Source: an uncultured Desulfobacterales bacterium (GTDB taxonomy: Bacteria; Desulfobacterota; Desulfobacteria; Desulfobacterales; CAFBRK01). Taken from it: a stretch of DNA of 45,510 bases. Where the stretch lies: assembly GCA_965602445.1 (NCBI GenBank), contig CBFCZJ010000001.1, positions 1 to 45,510 of the forward strand. Direction: 5' to 3'. The notes under the pieces are model-generated. The model saw only the letters and a list, made by a program, of their open reading frames with translations. It searched no databases and was not told the origin of the DNA. Below are positions 8,620 through 37,071 of the stretch, one piece after another. The first letter of the stretch is position 1; each line of letters starts with the position of its first letter. Both the position numbers and the translations under genes were made by a program.

Positions 8620-8626
8620 CGATTTG

Positions 8627-9229: not shown

Positions 9230-9250
9230 AGGTTCGGTGTTCAGGGTCCA
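9187..9250. repeat. Degenerate tandem heptamer/octamer array (RGGTTCN)n
   Basis: GGTTC or near-GGTTC recurs at about 9187, 9201, 9209, 9216, 9223, 9231, 9237 and 9244. Spacing is 6-8 nt from 9201 onward, with a 14-nt gap between the first two. No inverted partner is nearby. Confidence 0.65.
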
Positions 9251-9304
9251 AGTGTCAATCTTTGAAGCTTTTTTGGGTAGTTCTTGGCGGCGCAGCCGCC
9301 TCCT

Positions 9305-9349
9305 ATAAAGGCGCGGTAAAATCGCTTTTTGATTTTACCGCGCCTTTAT
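9305..9349 (-). repeat. Perfect 19-bp inverted repeat (stem-loop) overlapping the rlpA stop codon
   Basis: ATAAAGGCGCGGTAAAATC at 9305-9323, a 7-nt loop, then GATTTTACCGCGCCTTTAT at 9331-9349. Neither strand has a U-tract after it, so it is not a canonical intrinsic terminator. Confidence 0.6.
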
Positions 9350-15417: not shown

Positions 15418-15507
15418 CGAAACACCTTTTCCCAAAGTTTGCGGTAATGCAACAGGCTCGATTCTCAGCCGGCCGGGGCTTTGCCGCCGCACCGGCGCAC
15501 CGGCAGG

Positions 15508-16341
15508 CTACAGGTAGCGCTGCAAAAATCCGATGGCTTTGCGGGCCATGCCGGAGCGGAGCTTTCCAAAGAGCCCCCATTGCTTGATCTCTTTGATTTT
15601 GACCACGATGACCGTGATGTTGTCATGACCGCCCCGCTGATTGGCCATATCCACAAGCTTCCGGCAGGCCCGGTCCGCCGTCTGCTCCCCGACCACCGCT
15701 TGTATTTCTTCCGGAGACACCAGATCGCTCAGCCCGTCGGAGCTGATAACCACTGCGTCTCCCCTGAAAAAAGGCAGTTCAAAGACGTCCGGGGAAACGC
15801 TCTCTTCGATCCCCATGGCCCGGGTGAGCAGGTACTTGACATCTTCACCCAGACTGCTCGCCGCCTCAGGATCGAAGGCTGCCTGTTCACTGACCACGTT
15901 GTGGGTGACCGAAAGCTGGTCGATGTGGCCGTCATGAATCAGGTAGATCGGACTGTCGCCCACATTGGCGGTGATCAGGGTCTTGTCCGTGAGCACGGCC
16001 GCCGACACCGTTGCCCCCATTCCGCGGAAGGCGTCTTGGCCGCGGCCGGCTTCGAAGACCTTCCGATTTCCTTCGAATATGGCCCTTACCAGGCGGTCGG
16101 CCACCGGCGAAAGACTGCCATCGACGGCCGCCGGAGGCGCAGCGGCCGGGTTTTCGAATCCGGCCATGACGTCCCGGATCGTTTTGACCACCAGTTCGCT
16201 GGCGACCTCCCCGGCGCGGTGCCCCCCCATGCCGTCTGAGACGAGGTATACTCCCTGCTGGTCGTCCAGATAAAGCGCATCTTCGTTCCCTTTGCGCCTC
16301 TTTCCGACATCTGTCATGCCTGCCGATTCAACGACGACCAT
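15508..16341 (-). CDS. PP2C-family Ser/Thr protein phosphatase
   Basis: MTDVGKRRKGNEDA...LVSDGMGGHRAGEVAS...VISSDGLSD...GGHDNITVIVV are canonical PPM motifs. The start is uncertain (16341, 16317, or TTG at 16410). Confidence 0.88.
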   Translation of the reverse strand: MVVVESAGMTDVGKRRKGNEDALYLDDQQGVYLVSDGMGGHRAGEVASELVVKTIRDVMAGFENPAAAPPAAVDGSLSPVADRLVRAIFEGNRKVFEAGRGQDAFRGMGATVSAAVLTDKTLITANVGDSPIYLIHDGHIDQLSVTHNVVSEQAAFDPEAASSLGEDVKYLLTRAMGIEESVSPDVFELPFFRGDAVVISSDGLSDLVSPEEIQAVVGEQTADRACRKLVDMANQRGGHDNITVIVVKIKEIKQWGLFGKLRSGMARKAIGFLQRYL

Positions 16342-16532
16342 AATCTGGAATTTCGATTTGTCCCCTTGGCGGGAGGGCGGTGTGGTTCTTCGGCGGGGTC
16401 GGCCTGCCAAACCCCCCGCGCTGTTCTTACAGCATAACCATTTGACACGTCAAGCAATTCCTTGCAGCCGGCGGGGCGTCAAACCGGGGCGGCACCCGAC
16501 CTAGGTTCGATCCGCTTCGGTTCACCGAGGAG

Positions 16533-19079
16533 TCAACCCTGGTCTTTGACCCGTTTTTTCATCATCATCTCATCGAGCTTTTTCCCGAGCTCCCGGAGAT
16601 GGGCGGCCATCTGGCCCGCCTTCTGGTAGCGCTTGGATCGGTCTTTTTCCAGGGCCTTGTTCAAGATGAACACCAGCGGCTTGACGATTTTCGGGTTGAA
16701 CTGCCGCGGGTCCGGATGGGCAACGTTCATGATCTGGTGCATGAGGGCGGCGGGATTGTCCCCCTTGAACGGGAGCTCTCCGGTGAGCATCTGGTAGAGC
16801 ATGACTCCCAGCGAGAAGATGTCCGAGCGACCGTCGACCTTTTCCCCGGAGATCTGTTCAGGAGACATGTAATAGGGGGTGCCCTTGACCACGCCGGTCT
16901 GGGTCTGGGAGGTGGCTGTGATCCGGGCGATGCCAAAATCGGTGATTTTCACTACCCCGGATGCAAGCAGCATGATGTTTGCCGGCTTGATGTCCCGGTG
17001 GACGATTCCCTTGTCGTGGGCGTAGCCCAGGGCGTCGGCGATGTCGGCAGCGTAATCGATTGCTTTTCTCATCGGCAGCAGCCCGCCGGGTTTGATGTGC
17101 TTTTCCAGGTCGCTTCCTTCCAAAAATTCCATGGCGATGTAGGCCAGGTCCTGCTCGTCTCCGGCGTCATAGATGGTGACGATATTCGGATGAGACAGGG
17201 TGCCGGCGCTCTCGGCTTCCCGGAAGAATTTCTGTTTGAGCTGTTCGGCTTCTTCGGGCTCGAAGTCGTCGGAAAAGCGGAATGTCTTGATGGCGGTGGT
17301 GCGATGGATCCGGGGATCCTGGCCCAGATAGACGGTTCCCATGGCCCCCTTGCCGAGCTGCTTGATCACTTCATACCGGCCCAAGGTCGGGCGGGTGCCG
17401 GTGGCGGTGCTCATCAGCCCGTCTCCGCCCGAGCCGCTGCCGAACATTCCGTCGCCGAAGACCATGGTCTCGCTGGCCTGAAGAAGCCGCTTTTTGCGCG
17501 TGGTGACGTCCTTGAAGCCGCTGTCTGTTTCTTCGATGAGTTCATATACGGCGGCGGCCTTGTTGAGCTGCCGTTTTCGTTCAAAATCCAGGGCGAGGTT
17601 GTAGAGAATGTTCTTCATCTCATCGTCGACGGGGCACCGGCGGAATTTGTCGAAGGCCATATCGAGCATGCCCTGGCTTTGGAACGAGAGGCCGAGCATC
17701 CGGTTGGTTTCGGCCGATTCTCCCTCCATCTTTTCTTTCCTGGTTTCCGTGACGAAGTAGCTGAGGCTGACGGCGCCGATGTAGCCCAGAATCAGCTGCA
17801 AGGTGGGGTAGGTGACCGGCACCCAAAGTCCCTGCACTGCGAAAAGATAGGCGGAACCGCCGAAGAGGAGACAAAACAGCAAAACAAAGACCAGAGCCGA
17901 ATATTTGGCCTTGATGCGGGGAAGCAGCAGCGCGATGATCGCGCCTACCGCGAGGATCAGAACCAGCTCGGCGGTCTCACTCCAGAACGGCTGGCGGATA
18001 AACTGCTGGTTGAGCATGGCCCAGACGGTGTTGGCGGAGAATTCTCCCACCGGCATGGTCGGGTCGACCGGCGTGCTCAGAGGGTTCAAGATTCCGGTCG
18101 CCGACGCCGCCACCAGGACAACCTTGTTTTTAAACAGGTTTGCCGGGACCTTGCCGTTGATGACGTCAAAATAGGAAAAGCGTTTGAACGACCCCCGGGG
18201 GCCCTTGAAGCTGACCAGCATTTCCGAATAGACGGTGGTCGGGATCTCGATGGATGCGAGTCTGATCCACGAGCCGATTTGGGATTGAATCCGGTCCGGG
18301 GACAGATTCATCACCTTGGCCGCGATGGTCAGGGTATAGGAGGGAACGTATACACCGCGGTATTGATACAGCAGCCGCTCCCGGCGGGCTGTGCCGTCCC
18401 GGTCGTATGCCAGGTTGATGTGGCCGAGGCCGTCTGCCGCTGCCGTAAACTGCTCGATCGGGGCGACGGCTTCGCTGCCTACCGGTGTGACATATCCCTG
18501 TGGATTGCGGACATTGCCGATGGCCGCTGAGCGGATCGCTTCGCCCGGATCGTCTCCTTCGCCGGCGATGGCCGACTCCTTGAAAAAAATCGGCAGCACC
18601 ACCTTTCCCGATCGTTCCATTGCCAGCGCCAGTTTTCGGTCGTTGTCGAGCCGAAGCGTTGCCTTTTGCAATGCCTGCAGAAACGTCTCTGCGGCCGGCG
18701 ATGCCATCGGCAACAGCGAAGCGCGCAAATCGGCCTCCAGATTGCGAAGCTCGCGGAGCCCGGAGCTTTCCTCCGGTTCGCTGAAGACAAAATTGAGTCC
18801 GATGACCCGGGGGTTTCCGGCGTCGATGACGTCGATGCCTTTGGCAAGCAGCGAGCGGGGCCAGGGCCACCGCCCGAGCTTTTCGATGGAATCGTCGTCG
18901 ATGTCGACCATGACGATGTCGCTGGGGGCTTCGGGCTGCGAGCGCAGTCCCATCATCAGATCGTAGCGTTTGAGTTCGAGATTTTCGAAAAAGGAAATGG
19001 GAAAAAGGACGAGCCACAAAAAGAGGAGGGTAATTCCGATGCTCAAAAAAAGCGTCGGGTGGCGTTTCAAAAAGCCCAT
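16533..19079 (-). CDS. CHASE2 sensor domain / transmembrane / Ser-Thr protein kinase
   Basis: N-terminal TM then CHASE2 signature (VMVDIDDDSIEKLGRWPWPRS...VIGLNFVFSEPE). Three to four TM helices follow. The C-terminus is a Hanks kinase (GKGAMGTVY, AIK, HRDIKPANIM, DFGIAR, GTPYYMSPE). Confidence 0.9.
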   Translation of the reverse strand: MGFLKRHPTLFLSIGITLLFLWLVLFPISFFENLELKRYDLMMGLRSQPEAPSDIVMVDIDDDSIEKLGRWPWPRSLLAKGIDVIDAGNPRVIGLNFVFSEPEESSGLRELRNLEADLRASLLPMASPAAETFLQALQKATLRLDNDRKLALAMERSGKVVLPIFFKESAIAGEGDDPGEAIRSAAIGNVRNPQGYVTPVGSEAVAPIEQFTAAADGLGHINLAYDRDGTARRERLLYQYRGVYVPSYTLTIAAKVMNLSPDRIQSQIGSWIRLASIEIPTTVYSEMLVSFKGPRGSFKRFSYFDVINGKVPANLFKNKVVLVAASATGILNPLSTPVDPTMPVGEFSANTVWAMLNQQFIRQPFWSETAELVLILAVGAIIALLLPRIKAKYSALVFVLLFCLLFGGSAYLFAVQGLWVPVTYPTLQLILGYIGAVSLSYFVTETRKEKMEGESAETNRMLGLSFQSQGMLDMAFDKFRRCPVDDEMKNILYNLALDFERKRQLNKAAAVYELIEETDSGFKDVTTRKKRLLQASETMVFGDGMFGSGSGGDGLMSTATGTRPTLGRYEVIKQLGKGAMGTVYLGQDPRIHRTTAIKTFRFSDDFEPEEAEQLKQKFFREAESAGTLSHPNIVTIYDAGDEQDLAYIAMEFLEGSDLEKHIKPGGLLPMRKAIDYAADIADALGYAHDKGIVHRDIKPANIMLLASGVVKITDFGIARITATSQTQTGVVKGTPYYMSPEQISGEKVDGRSDIFSLGVMLYQMLTGELPFKGDNPAALMHQIMNVAHPDPRQFNPKIVKPLVFILNKALEKDRSKRYQKAGQMAAHLRELGKKLDEMMMKKRVKDQG

Positions 19080-25449: not shown

Positions 25450-27726
25450 GTGCGAAAGCATTTCATGGCCCTGTTTCAGAATCGGAAAAGGAATGTCAAG
25501 CTGCATTCCGCCCTCATCTCTGCGGCAATCCTCCTGGCCGGGATTCTGGGCTATTTCATTGGGTTTACCTTTTTAGACACCATCGAACTGAAGACCATGG
25601 ACATGCGGTTTTTGGCCCGGCAGCGCATTGCGCCCGGACCGGAGATCGTTCTGGCCGTGATCGACGAAAAGAGCATCGCCCGGGAGGGCAGGTGGGTCTG
25701 GCCGCGGACGAAGATCGTCCGCCTGGTTGAAAAGCTCTCCGATGCCGGAGCCAGGGTGATCGCCTTTGATATCGGTTTTCTGGAGCCCGACGACCAGCGG
25801 GTCATTCGCGTGCTGGAACAAGTCGAGTCGACGCTGTCTGATCTGAAGCCCGGCGACGAGCGGCTGAAAAAGCGCGTGGAAGCCCTCAAGTACGCTTCGG
25901 ACAGCGACCGGCAGCTGGCCGCCGCCATCCGCGATTCCCGATCCGAAGTGGTCCTCGGCTATTTTTTCCAGATGGATCCGGAGGTTCTGGACCACATGAC
26001 CGCAGAGGAGATCGACAGTCACCAGCAAAACATTCAAGGCTCCGCCTACAAGACGGTTCGTTTTTCATCCGCCGATGCCCAACGCGTGCCGTTGATCCGG
26101 GCGGTGGCCCCGCAATCCAACATCCGGGTGATTTCAGAGGCGGCCGACTACTCCGGATATTTCAATATGTACCCGGATCCGGACGGAGTGGTGCGCTGGA
26201 TGCCCGGCGTGCTCCGGTTCAACGAGGCGTATTATGCCCCGCTTTCCCTCGCGGCCACCAGCGCATACCTAAAGGAGCCGTTGGGGCTGGAGGTGGCCGA
26301 ATACGGCGTGGATCAGATCAAGCTCGGAAAACTGAACATTCCCACCGATGAATTCGGGCGTATCCTGATCAACTATCGGGGAGAAGAAAAGACCTTTCCC
26401 CACATTTCAATCACCGACATTTTACACGACGACGTCGACGCCGATGCACTGGCCGACAAGATCGTCGTGGTGGGAGCGACCGCAGTGGGCATCTACGACC
26501 TGCGGGTCACCCCCTTCGGAACGGTGTTCCCGGGTCTGGAAATCCACGCCAACATCATCGACAGCATCCTTTCCCAGGATTTCATGTACCAGCCGGCCTG
26601 GGCGGCGATGTTCGACGTTCTGGTAATGGTGGTCAGCGCAGCGATCCTGGGGTTTTTGCTGGCGCGGGTCGGCGCCCTGTCCAGCGCCCTGGCCGGCGGG
26701 TCGCTTTGCGTCCTGTATGTGATTCTCTGCCAGTTTCTGTTTTCCTATCAGGGGTGGGTCCTGAACCTGGTCTATCCCCTGACCGTCATTTTGCTGATCT
26801 ATGCGTCGGTGACGGTCTATCGTTATCTGGTCGAGACGCGTCAGAAAAAATTCGTCAAGGAAGCGTTTTCCACCTACCTGGCGCCGTCGGTGGTCAACAA
26901 CCTGCTCGATTCACCCGAAAAACTCGTGCTGGGAGGGGAAAAGCGGGTCATCACCGCCTTTTTTTCCGATGTCCAGGGGTTTACGAGCATCTCCGAGACG
27001 CTTCTGCCTGAAGAACTCGTCGAACTGCTCAACGAATTTTTAACGGAGATGACCGATATCATCCTCCGCCACGAAGGAACCGTGGACAAGTTCGAGGGAG
27101 ACGCCATCATCGCCTTTTTCGGCGCCCCCAACGACCTGGAAAACCAGGCGGAGGTCGCCTGCATGGCGTGCATCGACATGCAAAAACGGCTGGCCGAGCT
27201 TCGGAAAAAATGGCAGGGGCAGGGCCGGCCCGACCTTTACATGCGCATCGGCCTGTGCACGGGCCCCGCGGTCGTGGGGAACATGGGTTCCCGGAGCCGG
27301 ATGGATTACACCATGATGGGGGACACCGTAAACACCGCCGCACGGCTCGAGGGCGTCAACAAGGTCTACGGCACGTACACGATGATCAGCGAATCGACAT
27401 ACACGGCCGCCGGCGGATGGATCCGGGCTCGGGAACTGGATGCCATCAACGTGGTGGGCAAAAAAGAGCCGGTCAAAATCTATGAACTGATCGGATATCC
27501 CTCAGACGTGGACGAGCACATGCAAAAAGCCGCCGCGATCTACAGCCGGGGACTTTCCGCCTATCGAAGCCGCCAGTGGGACCAGGCTGCCGCCTATTTC
27601 AGCAAGGCAATGAAGTTTCGACCGGAGGACGGGCCGAGCCGCATCATGGCGGAGCGATGCCGGCGATACAAGGCAGACCCTCCCGACGAAACATGGAACG
27701 GCGCCTTTACCATGACGACAAAGTAA
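25450..27726 (+). CDS. CHASE2 sensor domain / transmembrane / class III adenylate-guanylate cyclase
   Basis: CHASE2 (VLAVIDEKSIAREGRWVWPRT...VIAFDIGFLEPD), then TM helices, then a cyclase catalytic domain (VITAFFSDVQGFTSISE...KFEGDAIIAFFGAP...GDTVNTAARLEG), then a TPR-like tail. 25450 is GTG; an in-frame ATG is at 25465. Confidence 0.9.
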   Translation: MRKHFMALFQNRKRNVKLHSALISAAILLAGILGYFIGFTFLDTIELKTMDMRFLARQRIAPGPEIVLAVIDEKSIAREGRWVWPRTKIVRLVEKLSDAGARVIAFDIGFLEPDDQRVIRVLEQVESTLSDLKPGDERLKKRVEALKYASDSDRQLAAAIRDSRSEVVLGYFFQMDPEVLDHMTAEEIDSHQQNIQGSAYKTVRFSSADAQRVPLIRAVAPQSNIRVISEAADYSGYFNMYPDPDGVVRWMPGVLRFNEAYYAPLSLAATSAYLKEPLGLEVAEYGVDQIKLGKLNIPTDEFGRILINYRGEEKTFPHISITDILHDDVDADALADKIVVVGATAVGIYDLRVTPFGTVFPGLEIHANIIDSILSQDFMYQPAWAAMFDVLVMVVSAAILGFLLARVGALSSALAGGSLCVLYVILCQFLFSYQGWVLNLVYPLTVILLIYASVTVYRYLVETRQKKFVKEAFSTYLAPSVVNNLLDSPEKLVLGGEKRVITAFFSDVQGFTSISETLLPEELVELLNEFLTEMTDIILRHEGTVDKFEGDAIIAFFGAPNDLENQAEVACMACIDMQKRLAELRKKWQGQGRPDLYMRIGLCTGPAVVGNMGSRSRMDYTMMGDTVNTAARLEGVNKVYGTYTMISESTYTAAGGWIRARELDAINVVGKKEPVKIYELIGYPSDVDEHMQKAAAIYSRGLSAYRSRQWDQAAAYFSKAMKFRPEDGPSRIMAERCRRYKADPPDETWNGAFTMTTK

Positions 27727-27852: not shown

Positions 27853-28216
27853 TTAAATCGCTTTTCCGTTCCGCCGCCCGGGTAGACATCCCCGGGCGTG
27901 AAATTTTTTCCGGCCCCGGCCCCCCAAGACAATGTAAGGCAAAACCCCCATGCTCGGCGTCCCGAGAATGAGGGAGGTCGCCTTTTTTTCGGCTCTGCTC
28001 TTGCCGGCGATTGCCGGCTGTTCCCCTTTCTGTATGGGCCACATCGCTATTGGCACAAATTGCTGCAAAAACGAGCGGTCAACTCGTCGACCTACAAAAA
28101 ATGTGGAAATTGATTTCATGCTCGAAAAAATGACGGGTTTTGGCTTCGGACCGTCCGATTTGCCCCCATGGCCGGAAATTCGGTCTGGCGGGCGTATCGG
28201 ATCAAGTTGCTGCGGT

Positions 28217-28245: not shown

Positions 28246-28261
28246 TGGCATTTTATTTGCT
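28246..28261 (+). promoter_or_regulatory. Sigma-54 (RpoN) -24/-12 promoter match TGGCAT-TTTAT-TTGCT
   Basis: GG at 28247-28248 and GC at 28259-28260 have the canonical 12-nt offset. It matches the consensus TGGCAC-N5-TTGCW at all but one defined position. It lies 48 nt upstream of the ATG at 28309. Confidence 0.55.
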
Positions 28262-28308
28262 TGATTTTCGGCGTTGACGTGTCATCAGCGCATCAAGGAA
28301 GGGCGGGT

Positions 28309-29439
28309 ATGGATGTGATGGAAATGGAGTTTATCGGCGGCCGGGGCAGAGGACACACGGCGAACAAGGCAATTTCAGCCGCCTTGCTTTTTTTCTGGAT
28401 CTTTTTACTGGCGCCGCCGTCGTCCCGTGCCGAGATCGTCACTGCCAAAGGCTTCAGTTTTTTCGAGCCGGGAAGAGAGATGATCGCACGGGAAAAGGCC
28501 CTGGACGAAGCCAAGCGGGCCGCCATCGAAGCGGCCATGGGCACCATGGTCGAATCGAGGACCGTGGTGGAAAACTTCGAGGTGGTCAAGGACCAGATCT
28601 TCAGCCGGGCCGCTGGATACCTGACCGGCCTTCAGATCATCGAGGAGACCAAGACCGATCTGGGCACATACGAGGTCACCATCCAGGCCGATGTGAAGGT
28701 CTCCGTGCTCGTGGACGACCTGGACCGGTTCCGGAACATGATCCAATGGCAGCAGAACCCCCGGATCAGCATCGGTCTGGAGCCGGGCATCGATTCGGAA
28801 GTCCTCCCGACCGCGTCCAAGACCGTCAATCTTCTCAGCGACAAGCTCAAGAAAAACGGATTCAAGGTGTTTCGGCATGGGGAGGATGGCACGGCGCTGC
28901 AAATGGGCTTTCTCATCGCATTGTCCCTGGATATGTCGACCCGGCAAACCAAATATCAGGGCATCGAGCTGACGCTCAACGAAGTCGGCCTGACGTCGAA
29001 CATATACCGGCCCGGTGACGGAGAAGTCGTCGCCACGGCCAGCGCGGTAGAGTCGATGCCGGGGGAAAACCGGCTCCAGGTTCTGGACAAGGGAGCCCGG
29101 GCCTGCGTAGACGCCGTGTGGAAGGACCTGAGGGATAAACTGCTGCGGCTGTGGGAAAAGGAGCTGTACAGCGAACGGGAGATATTTCTCGTTGCAAAGA
29201 ACGTCGACAGCAGCGCCCAGGCCCACGAGATCGCCGGCGTCCTTCAGTCCGATGTCAGCGGCATCCTCGGTGCGCGGATCATCCGGTATGAGGAAGGGGC
29301 CGCAGAAATGAGCGTCCGCTATCGGGGCTGGCCTGAGCAGCTTTTCAACGAATTGCAGCTCTCTTATTTTACGAGTCGGTATTTTGATTCGCAACTCGAG
29401 TCGATGGCCGGAAACAAAATGACAATCCGTATAAAATAG
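28309..29439 (+). CDS. Exported protein, FlgT-like layout (LPP20/FlgT_N-like N-domain plus TolB-N/CsgG-like middle domain)
   Basis: AAGGAAGGG precedes the ATG at 28309. Hydrophobic signal AISAALLFFWIFLLAPPSSRA. KGFSFFEPGREMIAREKALDEAKRAAIEAAMGTMVES...GYLTGLQIIEE...YEVTIQADV resembles LPP20/FlgT_N. 376 aa, similar to my recollection of the size of Vibrio FlgT. Assignment by eye only. Confidence 0.7.
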   Translation: MDVMEMEFIGGRGRGHTANKAISAALLFFWIFLLAPPSSRAEIVTAKGFSFFEPGREMIAREKALDEAKRAAIEAAMGTMVESRTVVENFEVVKDQIFSRAAGYLTGLQIIEETKTDLGTYEVTIQADVKVSVLVDDLDRFRNMIQWQQNPRISIGLEPGIDSEVLPTASKTVNLLSDKLKKNGFKVFRHGEDGTALQMGFLIALSLDMSTRQTKYQGIELTLNEVGLTSNIYRPGDGEVVATASAVESMPGENRLQVLDKGARACVDAVWKDLRDKLLRLWEKELYSEREIFLVAKNVDSSAQAHEIAGVLQSDVSGILGARIIRYEEGAAEMSVRYRGWPEQLFNELQLSYFTSRYFDSQLESMAGNKMTIRIK

Positions 29440-29468
29440 GTGTTTTCGGAGGCACGGGAGGAAGAACC

Positions 29469-31478
29469 ATGAGAATCGTCAGACCGGTGAAGATTGGACT
29501 GGCCCTGCTTTTCCTGATGTTGATGTTCGCATGTGCTGCAGGGCAGAAGCAGTTCGACGTTGGAATGCAGCTTTCTGCGGCGGGCAAGTACAAAGAGGCG
29601 ATCGCCTATTTTGAGCAGGCGCTGGAAAAAGAGCCGAACAACGAAAAATACCAGCAGGCCCTGAACGAACTCAAGCAGAAGCTGGTCGGGCAGTTCGTGG
29701 GCGAGGGCAGGACCGCGCTCAAGTCCCAGACACCGATCACCATCGGCGCCATCTCCAAGGCCAAGTCGGCCCTTTCCGAGGCCAAGGGAATCGACGCCGC
29801 CCATCCGGACGTCAAGGCGTTGGAAGATACGATTGTAGGCCAGGAGCAGGCGCTGGTGACTGAAATCGAGAGTTTGTACAACGCAGCCCGTTCCGCAGTG
29901 GACGCCGGCGATTGGCTCAAGGCCTATTTCAGCCTGCAGCAGATTCAGAGCCGCTATCCCAATTACGAAAACAGCTACCAGATGCTGAACACTGTCAGCG
30001 AACAGGGATCGCAGGCGCTGTTTGCCGAAGCCAAGAATCGTTTCGATGCGGAAGACTTCCGGGGAGCCAAGGACCTGCTCCGAAAGGTGTTGGCCCTGAA
30101 ACCCGACAGTGCAGAAGCCCGGGAGCTGTTGGCGATGGCCGAAGAGCGTGACAGCAAAGCCTACTTCGTGCAGCAGGCCCGGGAGGCAGTGATGGCCCAA
30201 CAGTGGGACCGGGCGGTGAAGACCTATGAGCGGGCCCTGGAGTACGATCCGGAAGACCAGGATCTGCGAAAGCTCATCGGCCACGTGCGCACCAAGGCCG
30301 GGCAGTTCTACATCCGCAAAGCCACCGGGCAGATGGACGAAGGCTGGCTGTTCAAAGCCATTGGAACCTACAACGTGGCCGCCGAATACATCAATGATCC
30401 CACCGACTACCAGATCAACAAGCTCCAGCGCGATCTCGTCTCTCGCGCCAATTACGCCGCCGGCCAGTTCAAGGAACAGGGCCGGTATGGGGGGGCCTGG
30501 TTCTGGTACAGCCAGATCAAGAAAATCGACCCGGACTATCCGGACATTTTCTTTCTGTCCCAGGCCATGGAAGACCGAATCAAGGAACGGGTGCAAAAAT
30601 CGATCGCCGTTTTCGACTTCGGAAGCCCCTCGGACAACAAGGACGCCGGCATCATCGTGGCCAACAACCTGATCACGTTTCTGTTCAACAACGCCAGCGG
30701 AGACATCAAAATCCTGGAGCGGGAAAATCTCAAGTCGATCTTGGAAGAAATGAAACTGGGCCAGATCGGCGTCGTCTCGGCGGCCAGTGCAAAGGAGATG
30801 GGACGCGTCTATGGCATCGACGTGGCCATCATGGGAAGCGTGCTGCTGTTCAAGGTCGATTCGAGCGTCTCGGACGGGACCAAATCGGTTCGCTACCAGG
30901 TCGGCGAGAAGATCGAGGACAACATCGAATATCTGAACTGGAAGGCCAAAAACCCGAATCCGAAACAGGAGGAGCTGGACGCCGCGCCTCCGGCGAAAAT
31001 CAAGATTCCGGAATTCAGCGAAAAGGACTACGCGGTATCCAACCACAAGAAGGTCGGGTTCGTGCAGCTTTCGTTTCGCATCGTCGACGTGCGAACCGGC
31101 GAGAACATCCAGGTGCGCACCGTGGAGCGAAAAGAGACCGTGGAGGACATCACCAGCGCCGGACTTCCGGAAGCCAAAGTCAAGTTCGATCCGCTGGAGA
31201 TCTCCACCGACACGGAGCTGCTTCAGAAGATGACCGCCGAAGTGGTGGCCGAACTCGGCCGCGAAGCCCTCCGGCCCCTGCAGAACCTGGAGCAGACATA
31301 TTTCAACGAGGGAGAAAAGCTGCAGCGGCGGCGGGACAAACTCGGCGCCGCAGAAAGTTTTGTCGACGCCGTATTCGACGAAAGACTCAAACAAATCCAG
31401 GACTCCCCGATGACGAAAAAGGCCAGCGAGAACCTGGACGAAATTTTCAGGGAGTACAGGGTCAGCCTGGGAGGGTAA
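29469..31478 (+). CDS. Lipoprotein with an N-terminal TPR region fused to a CsgG-like domain
   Basis: Signal plus lipobox-like LMFAC. TPR-like helical repeats run from about aa 30 to 350. A CsgG/LpoB-like pattern follows: IAVFDFGSPS...IIVANNLITFLF...IKILERENLKSILEEMKLGQIG...GIDVAIMGSV...FVQLSFRIVDVRTGENI. Confidence 0.8.
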   Translation: MRIVRPVKIGLALLFLMLMFACAAGQKQFDVGMQLSAAGKYKEAIAYFEQALEKEPNNEKYQQALNELKQKLVGQFVGEGRTALKSQTPITIGAISKAKSALSEAKGIDAAHPDVKALEDTIVGQEQALVTEIESLYNAARSAVDAGDWLKAYFSLQQIQSRYPNYENSYQMLNTVSEQGSQALFAEAKNRFDAEDFRGAKDLLRKVLALKPDSAEARELLAMAEERDSKAYFVQQAREAVMAQQWDRAVKTYERALEYDPEDQDLRKLIGHVRTKAGQFYIRKATGQMDEGWLFKAIGTYNVAAEYINDPTDYQINKLQRDLVSRANYAAGQFKEQGRYGGAWFWYSQIKKIDPDYPDIFFLSQAMEDRIKERVQKSIAVFDFGSPSDNKDAGIIVANNLITFLFNNASGDIKILERENLKSILEEMKLGQIGVVSAASAKEMGRVYGIDVAIMGSVLLFKVDSSVSDGTKSVRYQVGEKIEDNIEYLNWKAKNPNPKQEELDAAPPAKIKIPEFSEKDYAVSNHKKVGFVQLSFRIVDVRTGENIQVRTVERKETVEDITSAGLPEAKVKFDPLEISTDTELLQKMTAEVVAELGREALRPLQNLEQTYFNEGEKLQRRRDKLGAAESFVDAVFDERLKQIQDSPMTKKASENLDEIFREYRVSLGG

Positions 31479-31481
31479 TCC

Positions 31482-33488
31482 ATGTGTCGAGCCCGGAGCC
31501 TGGGTTGGTGCCTGCTGCTGGCAGCCGTGCTGCTGCTGATCAGGACGACGGCCTGCGCCGCGCCCCCTGCCGAGAACACCTTGGCGATTTTGAACCTGAG
31601 GCCGACCAATTTCGAGGCCATGGGGTACAACGGCGAGATTCTCTACGCGCTGATCTCCGCCTTGGAAAAGGAAAAGTCGGTAAAGCTGGTGCCCCGCCGC
31701 CAGATGGAAGACAAACTGTTTCAAGCGGGGCTGGTCCAGGGGGATTCGCCGGATATGGCGATGGAGGCGGCCGGGGTTCTTGGAATTCGCTACGTGCTGT
31801 TTGGAAACGTCACCAAGGACGGGTCGCGGATCCTGGCCAACATGAGCCTGATGGACGCCCAGCGCCGCAGGGTTGCCGAATCGTGGACAGAGAATTACGG
31901 GTCCCGGCAGGACATCTTGGCGAAGATCCCCCAGTTTGCCGCGGCGCTGGCCGCAGCGCTGGTACAGGCGAACAGCGACAAGGGCGGTGCCGAAATTGTC
32001 CAAGCAACGCCGATTGCGCCGAAGGTGACCCTCGAGACGCTGGGGGCCGCCGGGGAAGGGGACAATGTCGTCGTCCGCTGGAAGATCTCGGCAACGGAGG
32101 CGATCGCCGGCTACCAGTTATACCGATCCGAGAGTACGGAGGGGCCTTACCAGTTTCTCGGCCGCAGCGAGGAGGCGGAGTTTGTCGACAAGGCTATTAA
32201 AAAGGGGCGCACCTACTATTACCGCGTCGGCGTCGTGCTTGCCTCCGGCCGGGAAATCACGATCGACCGAACCGCCGCAATTCGCAATGCCGGAGAAAAA
32301 CTGCCGCATCCGCCGCTGATTTTGGGTGCTACGGGGTCCGTACGGCGGACCGAGGTCAAATATGTCCCCAACCTGCTCAACGACCAGGAAAAGTTCTCCA
32401 TCGTCGAGTACCGGGTCCATCGCAAGGCCGGCCCTTCCGACCCCTGGACCGCTATTGCCACCGCCGGGGCAAAACTCAGCTCCCAGCAGGAACTGGGGTT
32501 CACTTTCGAAGACACGGCAAATCTGGAAGACGGAAGCACCTACTTCTATGCCATTTCCAGCGTGGACCGGAAAAAACGGGAAAGCCCCCTGTCGGATCCG
32601 GTTTCGGTGAGCACCGTTTCCCGCCCTCAGCTTCGTTTGGAAAAGGAGCACCAGCTGCGGAAAATCGATCTCGCCTGGCAGCTCATCGATCAGGCGGAGG
32701 GCTATTACCTGTACCGTAAACAGGCCGCGGAATCCTGGCAGCGGGTCGAAAAGGTCCGCGCACAACCGTCTTTTCCATACACCGACAAGGATGGTCTGGA
32801 AGACGGCCAGCATTACGAGTACCGGATTACCGCCTACGATGCCAAGGGAGAAACCGGACCCAGCAATGTGATCACCGCCAGGACCAAAGCACTCCCCCCG
32901 CATCCTGCGGACATCGTCGCCCAAAGCGGGATGGTCAAGTCGGTGGCGCTGGCCTGGACGCCGGTGGACGACCCGGACGTGGGCGGCTATGCGATCTATC
33001 GGGGCGCGGCCGCGAACCGTCTCGAGGCGTTGACCAAGCTGAAAGGATACCGGAAAAACAGTTACCAGGACAAGGGATTTGGCTTTTCCTCACTCGATGA
33101 CGGCACCGATTATCATTACGCGGTGGCCAGCTACAACCTGTTCGGTGCCGAAGGGCAGAAAACCCCGGCGGTCAGGGCGCGGACCAAGCCCCGGCCGTCT
33201 GCCGTCTCCGGACTTCGGCTCTCGGCCCTTCCAGACCGGATTCTGGTCCAATGGGATTTGAACAGCGAGCCCGACATTGACACATACCGTTTGTATCGAA
33301 GCCGCGGGGGCGGCGGCTGGTCCAAGATTGCAGAGATCGGACCCCGGGAATTTTCCTATTCCGACACCGATCTGAAGCCGGACACCGAATACCGGTACCG
33401 CATGATTGTGAAGGATTCAGACGGGCTCGAAAGCGATCCGGCGGAAAGCCTGCCGATCCAAAGCCCGATCGTCGCTCCCAACTCCTGA
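31482..33488 (+). CDS. Exported protein with an N-terminal CsgG/LpoB-like domain followed by five FN3-like repeats
   Basis: GGGAGGG precedes the ATG, which lies 3 nt after the previous stop. The N-terminus reads LAILNLRPTNFEAMGYNGEILYALISALEKEKSVKLVPRRQMEDKL...GIRYVLFGNV. Five repeats of about 90-100 aa carry a W-x(n)-GYxLYR-x(n)-YxYxV/I-x-A/S-xD-x-G-x-ES/GP pattern. Confidence 0.8.
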   Translation: MCRARSLGWCLLLAAVLLLIRTTACAAPPAENTLAILNLRPTNFEAMGYNGEILYALISALEKEKSVKLVPRRQMEDKLFQAGLVQGDSPDMAMEAAGVLGIRYVLFGNVTKDGSRILANMSLMDAQRRRVAESWTENYGSRQDILAKIPQFAAALAAALVQANSDKGGAEIVQATPIAPKVTLETLGAAGEGDNVVVRWKISATEAIAGYQLYRSESTEGPYQFLGRSEEAEFVDKAIKKGRTYYYRVGVVLASGREITIDRTAAIRNAGEKLPHPPLILGATGSVRRTEVKYVPNLLNDQEKFSIVEYRVHRKAGPSDPWTAIATAGAKLSSQQELGFTFEDTANLEDGSTYFYAISSVDRKKRESPLSDPVSVSTVSRPQLRLEKEHQLRKIDLAWQLIDQAEGYYLYRKQAAESWQRVEKVRAQPSFPYTDKDGLEDGQHYEYRITAYDAKGETGPSNVITARTKALPPHPADIVAQSGMVKSVALAWTPVDDPDVGGYAIYRGAAANRLEALTKLKGYRKNSYQDKGFGFSSLDDGTDYHYAVASYNLFGAEGQKTPAVRARTKPRPSAVSGLRLSALPDRILVQWDLNSEPDIDTYRLYRSRGGGGWSKIAEIGPREFSYSDTDLKPDTEYRYRMIVKDSDGLESDPAESLPIQSPIVAPNS

Positions 33489-33595
33489 ATCGAGGGATTG
33501 GGACCGGAAGGAAACACCCTCTGTGGATCCTGAGCCGCCCGTCTATCTGCACGGCCGCCGGGGTTGCAGGACGATGCGGAAAGGAACCTGTGGAC

Positions 33596-33940
33596 ATGGA
33601 CCCATTTTCTCCAAATCGACGTCGAGATCCCGGGGTTTGGCGGCGGCGGTTTTTTCCGCGGCGCCGGGCCTTGAATCGCGGCGTCCTGATTCTTGCCGTC
33701 GTTTTGCTGATGGCCGCACCCCTGGGGGCTGCCGCGGCAGAACCGGAGCAGCGATTCATCTTGTTCAACGCGGAATACAACTCGAGTCTCAAGCAGCTGA
33801 GCAAGACCACGGTGTTCATGGAAAAGCGCCTGTTCAAGCTCGACACGCGAACCGGTGAGACCTGGGTGCTGATCGACGTGCTCCAGGATGGGGAAGACAT
33901 CCGCTACTGGAAAAAGATCACCAATTCCCCGGAGAAATAA
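33596..33940 (+). CDS. Small exported hypothetical protein
   Basis: AGGA lies about 10 nt upstream of the ATG at 33596; an in-frame GTG is at 33590. It has an Arg-rich N-terminus and then a hydrophobic signal, VLILAVVLLMAAPLGAAAA. The mature part is about 65 aa with no recognised family. Confidence 0.55.
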   Translation: MDPFSPNRRRDPGVWRRRFFPRRRALNRGVLILAVVLLMAAPLGAAAAEPEQRFILFNAEYNSSLKQLSKTTVFMEKRLFKLDTRTGETWVLIDVLQDGEDIRYWKKITNSPEK

Positions 33941-34100
33941 GGTCGGGTGCGCGATTTTCATTCGGTTTCGTGCTGCGCGAAGCACGGCAAGGGTTGCAAT
34001 CAAACCCCGGAGGCGGCTAAGATGCCGGTCGGCCGCTGCCCGGGGCCAAATACTTGGATGCGGTTTTTTTGAAATCAGGCTTGCTCAAAGGAGACGTGCC

Positions 34101-34940
34101 ATGAAGAATCTTCATTTACCGACGGCATGGGTGCTGGCCGTTCTGCTGCTGTTTCCCCTGGCGGCGTCGGGAGCCGATTCCGTTGCATTGATCGAAAGCA
34201 GCGGCGCCGGAAGCGTCAACTGGACCGAGGGATATATCGAGGCCAAAGGAATCGGCGCGCCCCCGGAAAAGTACTACGGAAAACCCAATGCACGGCCGCT
34301 GGCCATGCGGGCCGCCAAGCTCGACGCCCTCCGGAATATTTTGGAGGTGATCAACGGAGTACGGGTGGATTCCACCACCCTGGTGCGGGATTTTACCATC
34401 CAAAGCGACCTGATCCGAACCGAAGTGGAAGGAATGGTCCGGGGGGCCCGGGAAGTGGACACGCAATACATGTCCGACGGTACCGTCGAGATGGTCATGA
34501 GGGTTCCGCTCCACGGCGGATTTTCCGAGATCGTGCTGCCCAAAGACATCCAGCAGGTCGGTTCGATCACCACGGCCGTCGCGCCCAAACAGGACACGGG
34601 GATCTATACCGGCCTGGTGGTCGACGCACGGGGGCTCAACGCGCGTCCGGCGATGGCGCCCAAGGTGGTTGATGAAAACGGCCAGGAGGTCTACGGATCG
34701 GCATTCGTCAGCCGGGAGTTTGCAGTTCAGCAGGGCATGAGCGGATATGCCAAGGCGATCGAGGCCGCCGCGGAAAATGAACGTGTCACGGACAACCCCT
34801 TGACGGTAAAGGGGCTCAAGACCGAAGGCCCCGGGAGGTGCGATATCGTCATCAGCAACGCGGATGCATCGCGGATCCGCAACGCAGCCGAGCATTTGTC
34901 TTTCATGAAAAAATGCCGGGTGATGATCGTCGTCGATTGA
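34101..34940 (+). CDS. Exported LPP20-family-like protein with a second uncharacterised C-terminal domain
   Basis: AAAGGAGA precedes the ATG at 34101. Signal MKNLHLPTAWVLAVLLLFPLAASGA. GYIEAKGIGAPPEK...ARPLAMRAAKLDALRNILEVINGVRVDSTTLV...VEGMVRGA matches the LPP20/FlgP-type pattern by eye. Confidence 0.75.
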   Translation: MKNLHLPTAWVLAVLLLFPLAASGADSVALIESSGAGSVNWTEGYIEAKGIGAPPEKYYGKPNARPLAMRAAKLDALRNILEVINGVRVDSTTLVRDFTIQSDLIRTEVEGMVRGAREVDTQYMSDGTVEMVMRVPLHGGFSEIVLPKDIQQVGSITTAVAPKQDTGIYTGLVVDARGLNARPAMAPKVVDENGQEVYGSAFVSREFAVQQGMSGYAKAIEAAAENERVTDNPLTVKGLKTEGPGRCDIVISNADASRIRNAAEHLSFMKKCRVMIVVD

Positions 34941-35025
34941 GCCGGTTTCCGATGCGGCGGGTAAACGCCCGGCCCGGAATCCCATCGAATACGGGTCCGA
35001 TGTTTTTCGTGGACAAGGAGGAATC

Positions 35026-36192
35026 ATGATTTCAAATAAGTGGATCATCGGCTTGGCGGCGATTCTGCTGCTGACATTCACCGCTTGCGGGCCCAAGCCA
35101 ATGGCGCCGAAGGCGGAACTCGACACCCCCGAACATCATGTCGCAAACGGCAACAAGCTGCTGAAGGCAGGCAAGCTGGAAGGCGCTTTTTCCGAGTTCA
35201 ATCGGGCAAAGGAGTTGGACCCGAAACATTCGCCGGCTTACCTCGGAATGGGAGTCGTATACGGCCTTCAGGGAAATTTTGAAGAGGGGCTTGAGGAGCT
35301 GAAGACCGCCGATCGTTATGCCAAGGGCGACGCAGAAAAGCTCAACGTGGATGTCGGCTACATGCGGGTGTACCTGGCCGGCAAGGAAATCATCGACGAA
35401 AACTGGCTCAGGCGGGTGGAAAACGCCTATCGGGACGCGATTCGCATCGACGACCAGCGGCCGGAGCCGTATTATTACATGGGGCTGGGATACAAGGATT
35501 CCTATGAATTCAGAAAGGCGGCCGTCGAGTTCACCCGCGTGCTCGACTTGAACAAAGACCTGGCCGCCGAGGCCGACAGAGAATATGCGGTTATTCAGCG
35601 CATCGAACGGGCGATGCCCGGCACCAAGGTCGGAAAGAAAATCGCCCTGCTCGATGAGATCACAAGAGCCGACGTGGCCGCGCTGTTTATCGAGGAGCTG
35701 GAAATCGACGAGATATTCCGGCGGCGGATGCCGCGGACCTACGATACCGCTTTCAAGAGCCCGGAAAAGAATTTTCAATCCGGACAGTACGTGAAAACCG
35801 CCCCGGCGACCGATATCGAAGACCATGTGCTCAAAACCGACATCGATGCGGTGATCGAGCTTGGGATCAAGGGCCTGCAACCGTTTCCGGACCACACCTA
35901 TCGGCCCTACCAGCCGATTACCCGGGCCGAGTTTGCCATGATGATCGAAGATATTCTGATCAAAATTACCCGGGATGAAACCCTGGCGACCCAGTTCATC
36001 GGAAGCCCGTCTCCCTTTCCGGATCTGAGAAGCGATCTGCCGTACTTCAATTCCGTCATGGTCTGCACCACCCGCGGCATCATGGAGACGACCGATCCGG
36101 GTACAGGAGAATTCCAGCCGATGAAACAGGTCACCGGCGCCGATGCCCTGCTCAGCATCCGGACCCTCAAAAACCAGGTCGATAAGTTTTGA
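35026..36192 (+). CDS. Lipoprotein with N-terminal TPR repeats and C-terminal SLH-like repeats
   Basis: Lipobox LTFTAC. TPR-like segments include GNKLLKAGKLEGAFSEFNRAKELDPKHSPAYLGMGVVY. The C-terminal segments ITRADVAALF, ...GLQPFPDHTYRPYQPITRAEFAMMI and ...GEFQPMKQVTGADALLSI resemble S-layer-homology domains. Confidence 0.78.
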   Translation: MISNKWIIGLAAILLLTFTACGPKPMAPKAELDTPEHHVANGNKLLKAGKLEGAFSEFNRAKELDPKHSPAYLGMGVVYGLQGNFEEGLEELKTADRYAKGDAEKLNVDVGYMRVYLAGKEIIDENWLRRVENAYRDAIRIDDQRPEPYYYMGLGYKDSYEFRKAAVEFTRVLDLNKDLAAEADREYAVIQRIERAMPGTKVGKKIALLDEITRADVAALFIEELEIDEIFRRRMPRTYDTAFKSPEKNFQSGQYVKTAPATDIEDHVLKTDIDAVIELGIKGLQPFPDHTYRPYQPITRAEFAMMIEDILIKITRDETLATQFIGSPSPFPDLRSDLPYFNSVMVCTTRGIMETTDPGTGEFQPMKQVTGADALLSIRTLKNQVDKF

Positions 36193-36206
36193 CCGGGGGA
36201 GACGCC

Positions 36207-37001
36207 GTGAAAAGACGAGCTGGAAAAAGCGCCGTTCTGTTGGCCCTGACGATGGTTTTTTTGTTCGGGACCGGTGCCTTGGCGTCTTCGGATTCGGCCA
36301 TAACAGTGAAGATCGGCGGAGAATCGGCCGCGGTGTCTCTGCTGGAAGGAAGCGCCTGGTTGAAAAAGCAAGGCAAAGAGCCGGAGCAGCCTCTTAAAAG
36401 CGGCAGCCGGGTCTTTGCCGGGGATGTCGTTCGAACCGGCGGCGGCAGCCGCCTGGAGCTGGCCCTGCCCGAGGGAAGTTTTCTCCGGTTCGATGAGAAC
36501 ACCTCCTTTACGATGATGGCAAGCACCTATCAGGAGGCCGAGGAAAGCCGCAGCATCCGGATCCGGATGATTCTCGGAAAAGCCTGGGCGAGGGTCAGCC
36601 GACTGTTCAAGGGGCGGGGGGGGTTTGCCATCGAGACCCCGACGGCCGTGGCCGGCGTGCGGGGGACGACCTACCGCCTCAACCTGGAAAGGGATCGTTC
36701 GGCCATGGTAAAGGTCTACGACGGGGAGGTGGAAGTCCGACGGCGGATGATCGAATACCGCCCCGCCCAGGGGCCGGCGCCGCTGAAAACGCCCCATCCG
36801 GTGGCCGGACCGGAGCCGGTGGCCGGGCCCAAGGCGGTGACCATGGAAGAGTGGGTATACATCGTCGGTGCGCTGCAGCAGATCGACATCCGCGCGGACG
36901 GAACGGCCACCGAACCCTTTCGCTTCGACATCCAGGCCGACCTGGACGATTGGGTCCGGTGGAACCAGACGCTCGACCGGATGCACGAGGAAAAGCAATA
37001 A
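36207..37001 (+). CDS. Exported FecR-domain protein lacking the anti-sigma and TM parts
   Basis: GGGGGAG precedes the GTG at 36207; the ORF opens at TTG 36189. Signal AVLLALTMVFLFGTGALA. FecR-like beta region: LKSGSRVFAGDVVRTGGGSRLELALPEGSFLRFDENTSF...TPTAVAGVRGTTY. Confidence 0.75.
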   Translation: MKRRAGKSAVLLALTMVFLFGTGALASSDSAITVKIGGESAAVSLLEGSAWLKKQGKEPEQPLKSGSRVFAGDVVRTGGGSRLELALPEGSFLRFDENTSFTMMASTYQEAEESRSIRIRMILGKAWARVSRLFKGRGGFAIETPTAVAGVRGTTYRLNLERDRSAMVKVYDGEVEVRRRMIEYRPAQGPAPLKTPHPVAGPEPVAGPKAVTMEEWVYIVGALQQIDIRADGTATEPFRFDIQADLDDWVRWNQTLDRMHEEKQ

Positions 37002-37038
37002 AAAAGGGCGCCGGCAAAAATGCCGGCGCCCTTTTTTA
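37000..37038. terminator. Bidirectional intrinsic terminator
   Basis: A6 tract, GGGCGCCGGC at 37006-37015, loop AAAAAT, GCCGGCGCCC at 37022-37031, then T6 at 37032-37037. It sits directly after the FecR-gene stop and 34 nt from the ahcY stop on the other strand. Confidence 0.88.
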
Positions 37039-37071
37039 TTGCATGAAGATCAAGACCGCCGGGCGCGTGGA

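Follow-up and report, generated by a model that had tools for sequence, protein, structure and literature searches.

A conserved cluster of exported proteins with flagellar H-ring-type folds, found outside flagellar loci and beside envelope-maintenance genes in Desulfobacterota and marine Gammaproteobacteria

The 45,510-nucleotide stretch of DNA analysed here in full (‘the window’; contig CBFCZJ010000001.1 of assembly GCA_965602445.1, from an uncultured Desulfobacterales bacterium) encodes a run of seven + strand genes, G1 to G3 followed by g4 to g7, that an earlier sequence-only reading had put forward as a candidate undescribed envelope system made entirely from exported scaffold-type proteins. 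By comparing this run with its relatives, we see that a set of exported proteins, with folds of the type found in the flagellar H-ring, is deeply conserved, its genes being located outside flagellar loci and recurrently beside MCE (mammalian cell entry), AsmA-type and wall-remodelling genes. We tentatively favour, whilst placing it a little short of an even chance, a reading in which the cluster encodes an outer-membrane-anchored, H-ring-like periplasmic ring scaffold for a trans-envelope lipid-transport/envelope-maintenance assembly; one that is ‘wired’ in this lineage, through a FecR protein, to a CHASE2 cyclase.

A scan with a G1 profile, taking one genome per species, returned 41 loci, all of them from Desulfobacterota; loci (numbered with the prefix L) were then compared by tblastn and by clustering of all flanking open reading frames (ORFs). 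At the heart of the cluster is a triad of genes, encoded in the window as follows:

28309..29439, + strand: G1, a secreted FlgT-like three-domain protein (AlphaFold2 model, Foldseek, Pfam)
29469..31478, + strand: G2, a TPR + CsgG-like lipoprotein (Pfam, Foldseek, lipobox)
31482..33488, + strand: G3, a TolB_N/CsgG/LpoB/FlgO-like N-terminal domain followed by five FN3 repeats (Pfam, motif scan)

In 33–40 of 43 Desulfobacterota loci—every locus with room for the triad—the three genes stand in this order on one strand, and orthologs of G1 are found in all of the related loci. Further afield, the order is also kept by Alteromonas sp. I4, by Paraglaciecola sp. L3A3 and by distant lineages known from metagenomes (L047/L048 and L050); the triad is present, too, in a Desulfovibrio isolate and in metagenome-assembled genomes assigned to Desulfonema, a gliding, non-flagellated genus according to its original descriptions. 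The distribution therefore reaches beyond the Desulfobacterota and into marine Gammaproteobacteria, with the triad proteins of Alteromonas and Paraglaciecola retaining 25–44% identity; against Alteromonas, G1 aligns at 34% identity (E=6e-58), G2 at 44% over its full length (E=8e-180) and G3 at 30% (E=5e-91). As synteny persists across this degree of divergence, we reject a chance juxtaposition of exported genes. A search made with a distant G2 finds full-length orthologs in a wider set of cultured Gammaproteobacteria—Alteromonas, Paraglaciecola, Glaciecola, Colwellia, Catenovulum and Rheinheimera—for which the only NCBI label is ‘CsgG/HfaB family protein’.

The invariant core is thus the G1-G2-G3 triad, usually with LPP20-like partners beside it, rather than seven genes; g4, g6, g7, the CHASE2 cyclase and the sigma-54 promoter are lineage-specific add-ons. 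The set is syntenic in other genomes, but mainly as the triad, with g4 found in 9 other loci (iterated hidden Markov model, HMM; ~33 loci), g5-g6-g7 in about 8, and an ortholog of the cyclase adjoining the triad in about 9. Two variants of the set can be described here. In Rheinheimera maricola (L053:10001-21995), orthologs of G2 and G3 occur without G1, directly upstream of a type VI secretion cluster (TssA, VipA/B, TssE/F/G, ClpV). At L010:5294-9941, a paralogous ‘mini-module’ comprising a G1-like protein, a GNA1162-like beta-helix lipoprotein and an LPP20-like protein sits directly upstream of the main triad; components of the cluster would seem to duplicate and recombine as sets.

G1 consists of an LPP20/FlgT_N-like N domain, an M domain with the LptE/PelC/CsgG-fold, and a C domain. 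Its AlphaFold model (predicted local distance difference test, pLDDT, of 79) has FlgT as best full-length match in Foldseek (3w1e; E=4e-10, 394 columns) and also matches the FlgT chain of the LPHT ring structure 8z5n; the global TM-score against FlgT is, however, only 0.30, indicating that the domain arrangement differs. Structural matches to the M domain comprise LptE, PelC, CsgG, GNA1162 and DUF330. At the level of sequence, FlgT_N scores 19.2 bits in Pfam against a gathering score of 28.8, rising to 32–36 bits in some distant relatives of G1; the FlgT-like assignment made previously is therefore upheld by the fold search, though FlgT_N itself is sub-threshold. By exhaustive profile search, the close relatives of G1 form a small family of 56 representatives (E<=1e-30), nested within a large superfamily that contains FlgT_N and is without annotation (1,229 representatives at E<=1e-10; 5,388 at E<=1e-3); one member of the superfamily comes from Ca. 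Firestonebacteria.

G3 carries a Pfam fn3 match of 65.5 bits and five FN3 F-strand motifs, and the number of repeats differs among orthologs (660–1235 aa). Across 22 orthologs scanned, the N-terminal domain gives weak matches to TolB_N (11), CsgG (9), LpoB (6) and FlgO (3), in line with the CsgG/LpoB-like domain originally described. When G1, the G2 C-terminal domain and the G3 N-terminal domain were compared by hhalign, the only similarity, itself weak (P=0.009), was between the latter two, the G3 domain aligning with the start of that of G2; this is consistent with a shared fold. The lipoboxes described previously hold for G2 and for g6, but the cysteine in the signal peptide of the window's G3—the possible third—is not kept in orthologs; G3 is thus probably a plain secreted protein and not a lipoprotein.

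In G2, ~340 aa of TPR repeats precede a strongly conserved CsgG-like C-terminal domain (70% identity to Desulfovibrionaceae), and a lipobox, L-F-A/S-C, is kept across orthologs. Pfam matches CsgG (PF03783) at 42.7 bits against a cut-off of 20.8, together with TPR families, and a model of the C-terminal domain (pLDDT 75) retrieves CsgG first in Foldseek, then PelC, GNA1162, FlgT and LpoB; profile searches of this domain and of the G3 N-terminal domain against PDB sequences gave nothing useful. The proposed identity of G2, a TPR + CsgG-like lipoprotein, is therefore secure. A match to PF27421 is precomputed for some orthologs (P0348, P0353, P0378, P0382 and P0466) and is absent from our own Pfam scans of G2.

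Is G2 then a secretion channel? An oligomeric pore of the CsgG/HfaB type could serve a curli- or holdfast-like export system, with the small secreted proteins (g4, or those of 119–145 aa in relatives) or G3 as its substrates, and with G1 and the LPP20 proteins as periplasmic accessories. Much of the evidence just described would suit this: the above-threshold CsgG score, a top structural match extending over about 285–297 columns and including the membrane-bound structure 4uv3, a lipoprotein anchor as in CsgG, the name given to orthologs by NCBI, and a model with two long predicted beta-hairpins, the first of them cleanly amphipathic. A small secreted protein also follows G3 in nearly every locus, and a CsgG homolog that works in non-curli export is known in HfaB (PMC6707917). 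Against this, neither the window nor any related locus contains a csgA/B/E/F-like or hfaA/D-like gene, the small proteins do not form one family, with some appearing to be LPP20-like and structural rather than amyloid-like substrates, and the N-terminal TPR region of G2 sets it apart from both the curli and Caulobacter holdfast-anchor proteins. We also placed G2 on Escherichia coli CsgG by profile alignment, anchored just before the first CsgG transmembrane hairpin and using what we take to be the positions of the two hairpins in the published structure, to give the following comparison:

First hairpin equivalent, length: 68 aa in G2, 26 aa in CsgG
First hairpin equivalent, charged residues: 35% in G2, 19% in CsgG
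First hairpin equivalent, Gly: 3% in G2, 19% in CsgG
Second hairpin equivalent, charged residues: 38% in G2, 19% in CsgG

The composition of these segments, longer and far more charged than those of CsgG and in the first case not Gly-rich, favours a soluble ring over a membrane barrel for G2, and we consider the secretion channel unlikely. The G2 insertion carries a motif, DNIEYLNWKA.NPNP, that is kept from Desulfobacterota to Alteromonas. The earlier statement that the cluster has no beta-barrel component overlooks the fact that a CsgG-type oligomer is itself a barrel; hairpin composition argues, though not conclusively, against one here.

The genes that accompany the triad in its relatives bring in a different set of functions. 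In Alteromonas sp. I4 the order runs G1, G2, G3, two small proteins, SLT, LPP20, TPR, lipoprotein, MlaE, MlaF, MlaD, and then a beta-helix protein. The L047/L048 and L050 clusters—co-directional, with tiny gaps—likewise continue from the triad into small proteins, an SLT lytic transglycosylase, LPP20-like proteins, a TPR protein and MlaE (at the end of the locus in L047), with MlaF also present in L050; in L050 and L051 (Alteromonas) the MlaE-MlaF-MlaD genes run in the same direction as the triad. In Paraglaciecola sp. L3A3 the genes after the triad encode small proteins, SLT, a GNA1162-like beta-helix lipoprotein and an LPP20-like protein. Such LPP20-like partners are found in Desulfovibrionaceae, Alteromonas, Paraglaciecola, L047 and L050, whilst the GNA1162-like lipoprotein recurs in both phyla and is also seen together with an LPP20-like partner.

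In the Desulfobacterales, MlaE, MlaF-like and MlaD genes (in the order E-F-D) lie immediately upstream of the triad and divergent from it in 8 loci, as a complete trio in L004, L009, L011, L016 and L030 and in part in L007, L008 and L012. The MlaF-like subunit lacks the Walker A motif, GxxGxGK[ST], in L004, L009, L011, L012, L016 and L030 (the c12 family) and also at L051:20337-20993; its occurrence in this form in both Desulfobacterales and Alteromonas points to one and the same dedicated module. Loss of the motif suggests that the subunit is a catalytically dead ATPase, belonging to a non-canonical MCE module; no equivalent of MlaA, MlaC, PqiA or PqiB was recognised. Elsewhere, an AsmA/YhdP-like gene directly follows G3 in 4 loci, a gene for a 1,230-aa protein and then DUF1318 lie beside the triad in another lineage, and a TPR-amidase (Amidase_3) does so in a further one.

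A small secreted protein almost always follows G3, though not from one family; those other than g4 span 119–145 aa and some are LPP20-like. In the Desulfonema-like lineage (L018, L022, L024, L027) this position is taken by a secreted protein of ~131 aa (c21), followed by a convergent gene (c22, ~495 aa) whose product looks, from its sequence, like a trypsin-like/PDZ (HtrA-type) protease. In Desulfovibrionaceae, the genes directly preceding G1, and co-directional with it, encode GT4 glycosyltransferases (two in L045, with one homolog in L042, at ~7500-9770); along with a downstream CASH-type beta-helix protein, these hint at a glycan link in that family. Flagellar, curli and pel genes are absent from beside the triad in all of the about 50 related loci, as the sequence-only reading would lead one to expect. 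Its picture of a self-contained, scaffold-only system describes this window well but does not extend to relatives, where a lytic transglycosylase, the Mla-like trio and AsmA-like genes are added.

The window's own version of the cluster is completed by four further genes, and preceded by that for the cyclase:

33596..33940, + strand: g4, small secreted protein, ~67 aa when mature; accessory of one sub-clade
34101..34940, + strand: g5, secreted LPP20/FlgP-like protein with a second domain (Pfam, PDB matches)
35026..36192, + strand: g6, lipoprotein with TPR and three SLH repeats (Pfam, motif scan)
36207..37001 (alternative start TTG 36189), + strand: g7, secreted FecR-only protein (Pfam)
25450..27726, + strand: CHASE2/class III adenylate-guanylate cyclase/TPR sensor (Pfam; CHASE2 211.8 bits, Guanylate_cyc 77.6 bits)
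27875..27898, + strand: terminator-like GC hairpin after the cyclase gene (8/8 GC pairs, then a T-run)

Matching no Pfam or NCBIfam family, g4 always lies directly after G3 where it occurs; a four-gene core including it was rejected, the iterated HMM showing that it is not universal. For g5 the LPP20 score is marginal (25.8 bits against a cut-off of 25.9), but solved FlgP chains match at E about 1e-5, bearing out the LPP20-like assignment, and Tp0624 at E=0.008; g5 has no lipobox and matches a 346-aa LPP20 protein of Alteromonas at E=5e-22. The description of g6 as a TPR + SLH lipoprotein likewise holds, with TPR and SLH (38.1 bits) found by Pfam, SLH motifs TRAD, TRAE and TGAD at residues 213, 299 and 370, and a lipobox of its own (L-T-F-T-A-C); it is a probable cell-wall tether. 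FecR (PF04773) is matched by g7 at 68.8 bits, which together with its signal peptide confirms the earlier call, and g7 resembles LipL45 and Lsa33. By BLAST, g6 and g7 show no relationship to the TPR and 239-aa proteins at the matching positions in Alteromonas. N-terminal signal peptides are visible on 7/7 products, all of which had been predicted to be exported, and profile and fold searches agree that the products belong to non-enzymatic, scaffold-type families (FlgT, LPP20, CsgG, TPR, FN3, SLH and FecR).

How might these components fit together? In the arrangement that we favour, G2 would be held in the outer membrane, presumably by its lipoprotein anchor, with G1, G2, G3 and the LPP20 proteins building scaffolds, as concentric rings or a lattice, along the periplasmic side of that membrane, independently of any flagellum; a proposal made because the same folds build the H-ring (FlgT, FlgP, FlgO) and the rings of PelC, PqiC and CsgG. 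The FN3 ‘stalk’ of G3 and the TPR ‘arm’ of G2 may extend from here towards the cell wall and inner membrane. The scaffold would then sit at the outer-membrane end of a complex that spans the envelope and serves lipid transport or maintenance of the outer membrane, since the clusters of relatives include a lytic transglycosylase and MlaE/degenerate-MlaF/MlaD, or adjoin AsmA-like genes; the wall-cutting enzymes could allow the complex to traverse peptidoglycan. In the lineage studied here, g4, g6 and g7 would have been added, the SLH repeats of g6 anchoring the complex in the wall, and g7, as the FecR protein, probably reporting the state of the complex to the neighbouring CHASE2 adenylate cyclase.

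The closest parallel is with the H-ring of Vibrio, formed concentrically from a FlgT ring and lipoprotein rings of FlgP and FlgO (bioRxiv 10.64898/2025.12.02.691832), and with the FlgP basal disk of Campylobacter and Helicobacter. Shared features are the FlgT fold of G1, the LPP20/FlgP-type domain of g5 and of small partner proteins, the FlgO/TolB_N-type domain of G3, and the use of exported proteins or lipoproteins beneath the outer membrane. Unlike the H-ring, the cluster is never linked to flagellar genes and keeps company with Mla-like, SLT and AsmA-like partners, not flgH, flgI or motXY; its CsgG-like and FlgO-like domains each share a protein with a repeat array (TPR and FN3, respectively), g5 lacks a lipobox, and G1 falls below the FlgT_N cut-off. 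A second parallel is with MCE systems, in one of which the lipoprotein PqiC forms a ring that docks the MCE tube at the outer membrane (PMC10897342). Here the likeness to Mla and to E. coli PqiABC, with its PqiC octamer, lies in the MlaE, MlaF and MlaD genes of the relatives' clusters, in the LptE/DUF330 fold class shared by the G1 M domain and the PqiC family, and, in concept, in a lipoprotein ring docked on a periplasm-spanning lipid transporter. The differences are that the window itself has no Mla or Pqi gene, that the relatives' MlaF-like subunit is without Walker A, and that the cluster has many more scaffold proteins (FlgT-like, TPR, FN3, LPP20) than any MCE system described.

Several points weigh against the ring-scaffold reading. 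Ring formation is drawn by analogy from the fold families, within which LpoB and TolB_N are monomers, and G2 could be a true CsgG-type pore. The 45 kb of the window contain no Mla, SLT or AsmA gene, such that the link to lipid transport comes wholly from relatives; moreover, genes that lie together need not encode interacting proteins, and many of the Desulfobacterales loci come from close relatives and so cannot be counted as independent. With a degenerate MlaF, the energy source of the proposed transporter is uncertain. Finally, the cyclase is set apart from G1 by the hairpin and 580 nt and is absent from most loci, making the signalling link lineage-specific at best. A bolder version, in which the triad and its LPP20 partners would make a free-standing, flagellum-independent multi-ring organelle—a sibling or precursor of the H-ring/basal disk, capping an MCE bridge with a degenerate ATPase—is possible but, in our view, doubtful. 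Saying this, there is a substantial chance that the cluster represents a new class of envelope machine.

The wall-associated components allow for another reading, in which the proteins would make up a peptidoglycan-linked structural or regulatory layer with no tie to lipid transport, acting either as a tether between outer membrane and wall, or as LpoB-like activators/organisers of wall synthesis and remodelling working with the transglycosylase or amidase. The LpoB/TolB_N-type fold in G1, G2 and G3, the three SLH repeats of g6, the SLT and Amidase_3 genes in or beside the cluster in several lineages, and the peptidoglycan-binding LysM-FecR precedents are all compatible with such a layer. However, g6 with its SLH repeats is missing from most loci, including all of those from Gammaproteobacteria; no gene for a penicillin-binding protein or synthase was seen in any flank; dedicated lytic enzymes typically go with large wall-spanning machines; and the recurrent Mla-like trio would be left without explanation. 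We therefore judge this reading to be decidedly unlikely.

A third possibility, already offered as an alternative by the sequence-only reading, is that the primary function is sensory, the cluster acting as a periplasmic receptor scaffold that feeds the CHASE2 adenylate cyclase. The cyclase gene shares its strand with g7 and is 8.5 kb upstream of it, and the intervening terminator-like hairpin argues for a separate transcription unit. In L012 a FecR gene is directly 3' of the CHASE2 cyclase gene, and LysM-FecR proteins encoded beside CHASE2 kinases have been reported (PMC5192318); on these two grounds, and as part of the ring-scaffold reading that we favour, g7 would couple the complex to the cyclase, its likely signalling partner. 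The window's arrangement resembles the LysM-FecR + CHASE2 kinase operon of Burkholderia and P. aeruginosa in having an exported FecR protein (g7) near CHASE2 and a wall-binding domain (SLH, in g6), but differs in that the output is a class III cyclase and not a histidine kinase, that SLH is found on a separate lipoprotein in place of a LysM fused to FecR, and that FecR and CHASE2 are six genes apart. A sensory role would also fit the recurrence of the cyclase beside the triad and the presence in the window of a PilZ protein with a cyclic-nucleotide-binding domain. Most triad loci, including all of those from Gammaproteobacteria, are without CHASE2 or FecR within 10 kb, however, and the cyclase appears to be transcribed separately; as a primary function we thus find this very unlikely. 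The coupling to the cyclase suggested previously retains its published FecR-CHASE2 precedent but, given so few loci and a probably separate transcription unit, cannot be generalised to the family.

Turning to the locus itself, an ORF check finds the seven + strand ORFs, with coding-like GC content at third codon positions in all of them and intergenic gaps of 29, 3, 107, 160, 85 and 14 nt. An independent gene caller, run on the source contig (ENA ERZ27241918), agrees, giving the same products at 376, 669, 668, 114, 279, 388 and 270 aa, with g7 starting at TTG 36189 and overlapping g6 by 4 nt; the co-directional run is therefore as first described. The signals around it are:

28246..28261, + strand: sigma-54-type promoter match TGGCAT-N5-TTGCT, TGGCATTTTATTTGCT, 48 nt before the G1 ATG
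28092..28108, + strand: conserved upstream block CTACAAAAAATGTGGAA, ~140 nt upstream of the sigma-54 site
36995..37042, both strands: bidirectional intrinsic terminator, 20-bp stem with A-run and T-run flanks, common to the convergent ahcY gene

The sequence TGGCATTTTATTTGCT is the sole 1-mismatch sigma-54 match within the window, and it is kept as an ‘island’ amid diverged flanks in the two closest relatives, L006 and L007; in this lineage transcription would start from this promoter. A scan of related loci found that the site is not kept in the wider family, and sigma-54 control as a family trait was accordingly rejected; the promoter first proposed for the cluster thus stands for this window and its two closest relatives only. 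No protein with a Sigma54_activat domain is encoded in the 45-kb window, and one could lie elsewhere in the genome. The block CTACAAAAAATGTGGAA is identical between the window, L006 and L007, in contrast to the diverging sequence around it; a role as an activator or integration host factor (IHF) site would be conjecture. A second sigma-54-like string, TTGGCACAAATTGCTGC (28050-28066), lies ~190 nt upstream of TGGCATTTTATTTGCT with the wrong spacing (GG-N8-GC) and is only partly conserved in L007. The terminator noted previously is confirmed by its 20-bp stem, and a search of the intergenic gaps with Rfam returned no RNA element, the sole matches being sub-threshold look-alikes of the 36995-37042 hairpin.

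Sigma-54 often drives flagellar genes. A role in the flagellar motor, with the cluster supplying from a remote locus a true H-ring/basal-disk equivalent, would accord with this and with the FlgT fold of G1, the FlgP match of g5 and the weak FlgO match of the G3 N-terminal domain, but is most improbable given that 0 of about 50 loci adjoin a flagellar gene, that the triad occurs in genomes assigned to Desulfonema, described as non-flagellated, that the sigma-54 site is lineage-specific, and that the neighbours are instead Mla, SLT and AsmA-type genes.

Profile scans of the proteins encoded in the window found no flagellar, curli or exopolysaccharide genes, in agreement with the sequence-only reading, and what surrounds the cluster is made up of housekeeping and signalling genes. 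Resemblance to PelB/PelC comes from the combination of a TPR array with the PelC-type lipoprotein fold (PelC being a dodecameric ring under the outer membrane) and, in some relatives, from the CASH-type beta-helix protein and GT4 glycosyltransferases; the searches turned up neither pelA-G genes nor a synthase or porin domain. Membership of the Pel, curli or flagellar systems was rejected because the partner genes are absent. Literature searches for this combination of families turned up nothing relevant, and no publication describing the set, such that it does indeed appear to be undescribed, albeit assembled from known fold families and with near analogues in the H-ring and in MCE systems with a lipoprotein ring.

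The proteins of the H-ring and basal disk are seen as inventions of the flagellum, and a cluster of the same folds that is conserved apart from it would show where the accessory rings of the flagellum originated. The layout across the periplasm of the machines for lipid traffic and outer-membrane homeostasis is still to be worked out, and a scaffold linked to MCE/AsmA genes would provide a new entry point. For CHASE2 sensors, which have no known ligand or input, the variant found in this window suggests an input of envelope state via a FecR protein. If true, the multi-ring reading would define a new class of trans-envelope machine common to Desulfobacterota and marine Gammaproteobacteria. As the cluster is found in cultured Alteromonas and Paraglaciecola, and in a Desulfovibrio isolate, it is directly testable.

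Three further observations concern signalling. A compact trio at L049:3941-6812, encoding a g5-like LPP20 protein, a G1-like protein and FecR in the absence of G2 or G3, provides a direct link between the FlgT-like and FecR families. A second CHASE2 module is present in the window, on the - strand at 14698-19079, ~9 kb upstream of the cluster, and consists of a CHASE2-Ser/Thr kinase fusion (16533-19079), a PP2C phosphatase (15508-16410) and an FHA-domain protein (14698-15492). Lastly, the gene at 2413-3105 (+ strand) encodes a cyclic-nucleotide-binding domain fused to PilZ, a possible effector leading from the cyclic AMP made by the cyclase to outputs of the cyclic di-GMP type.

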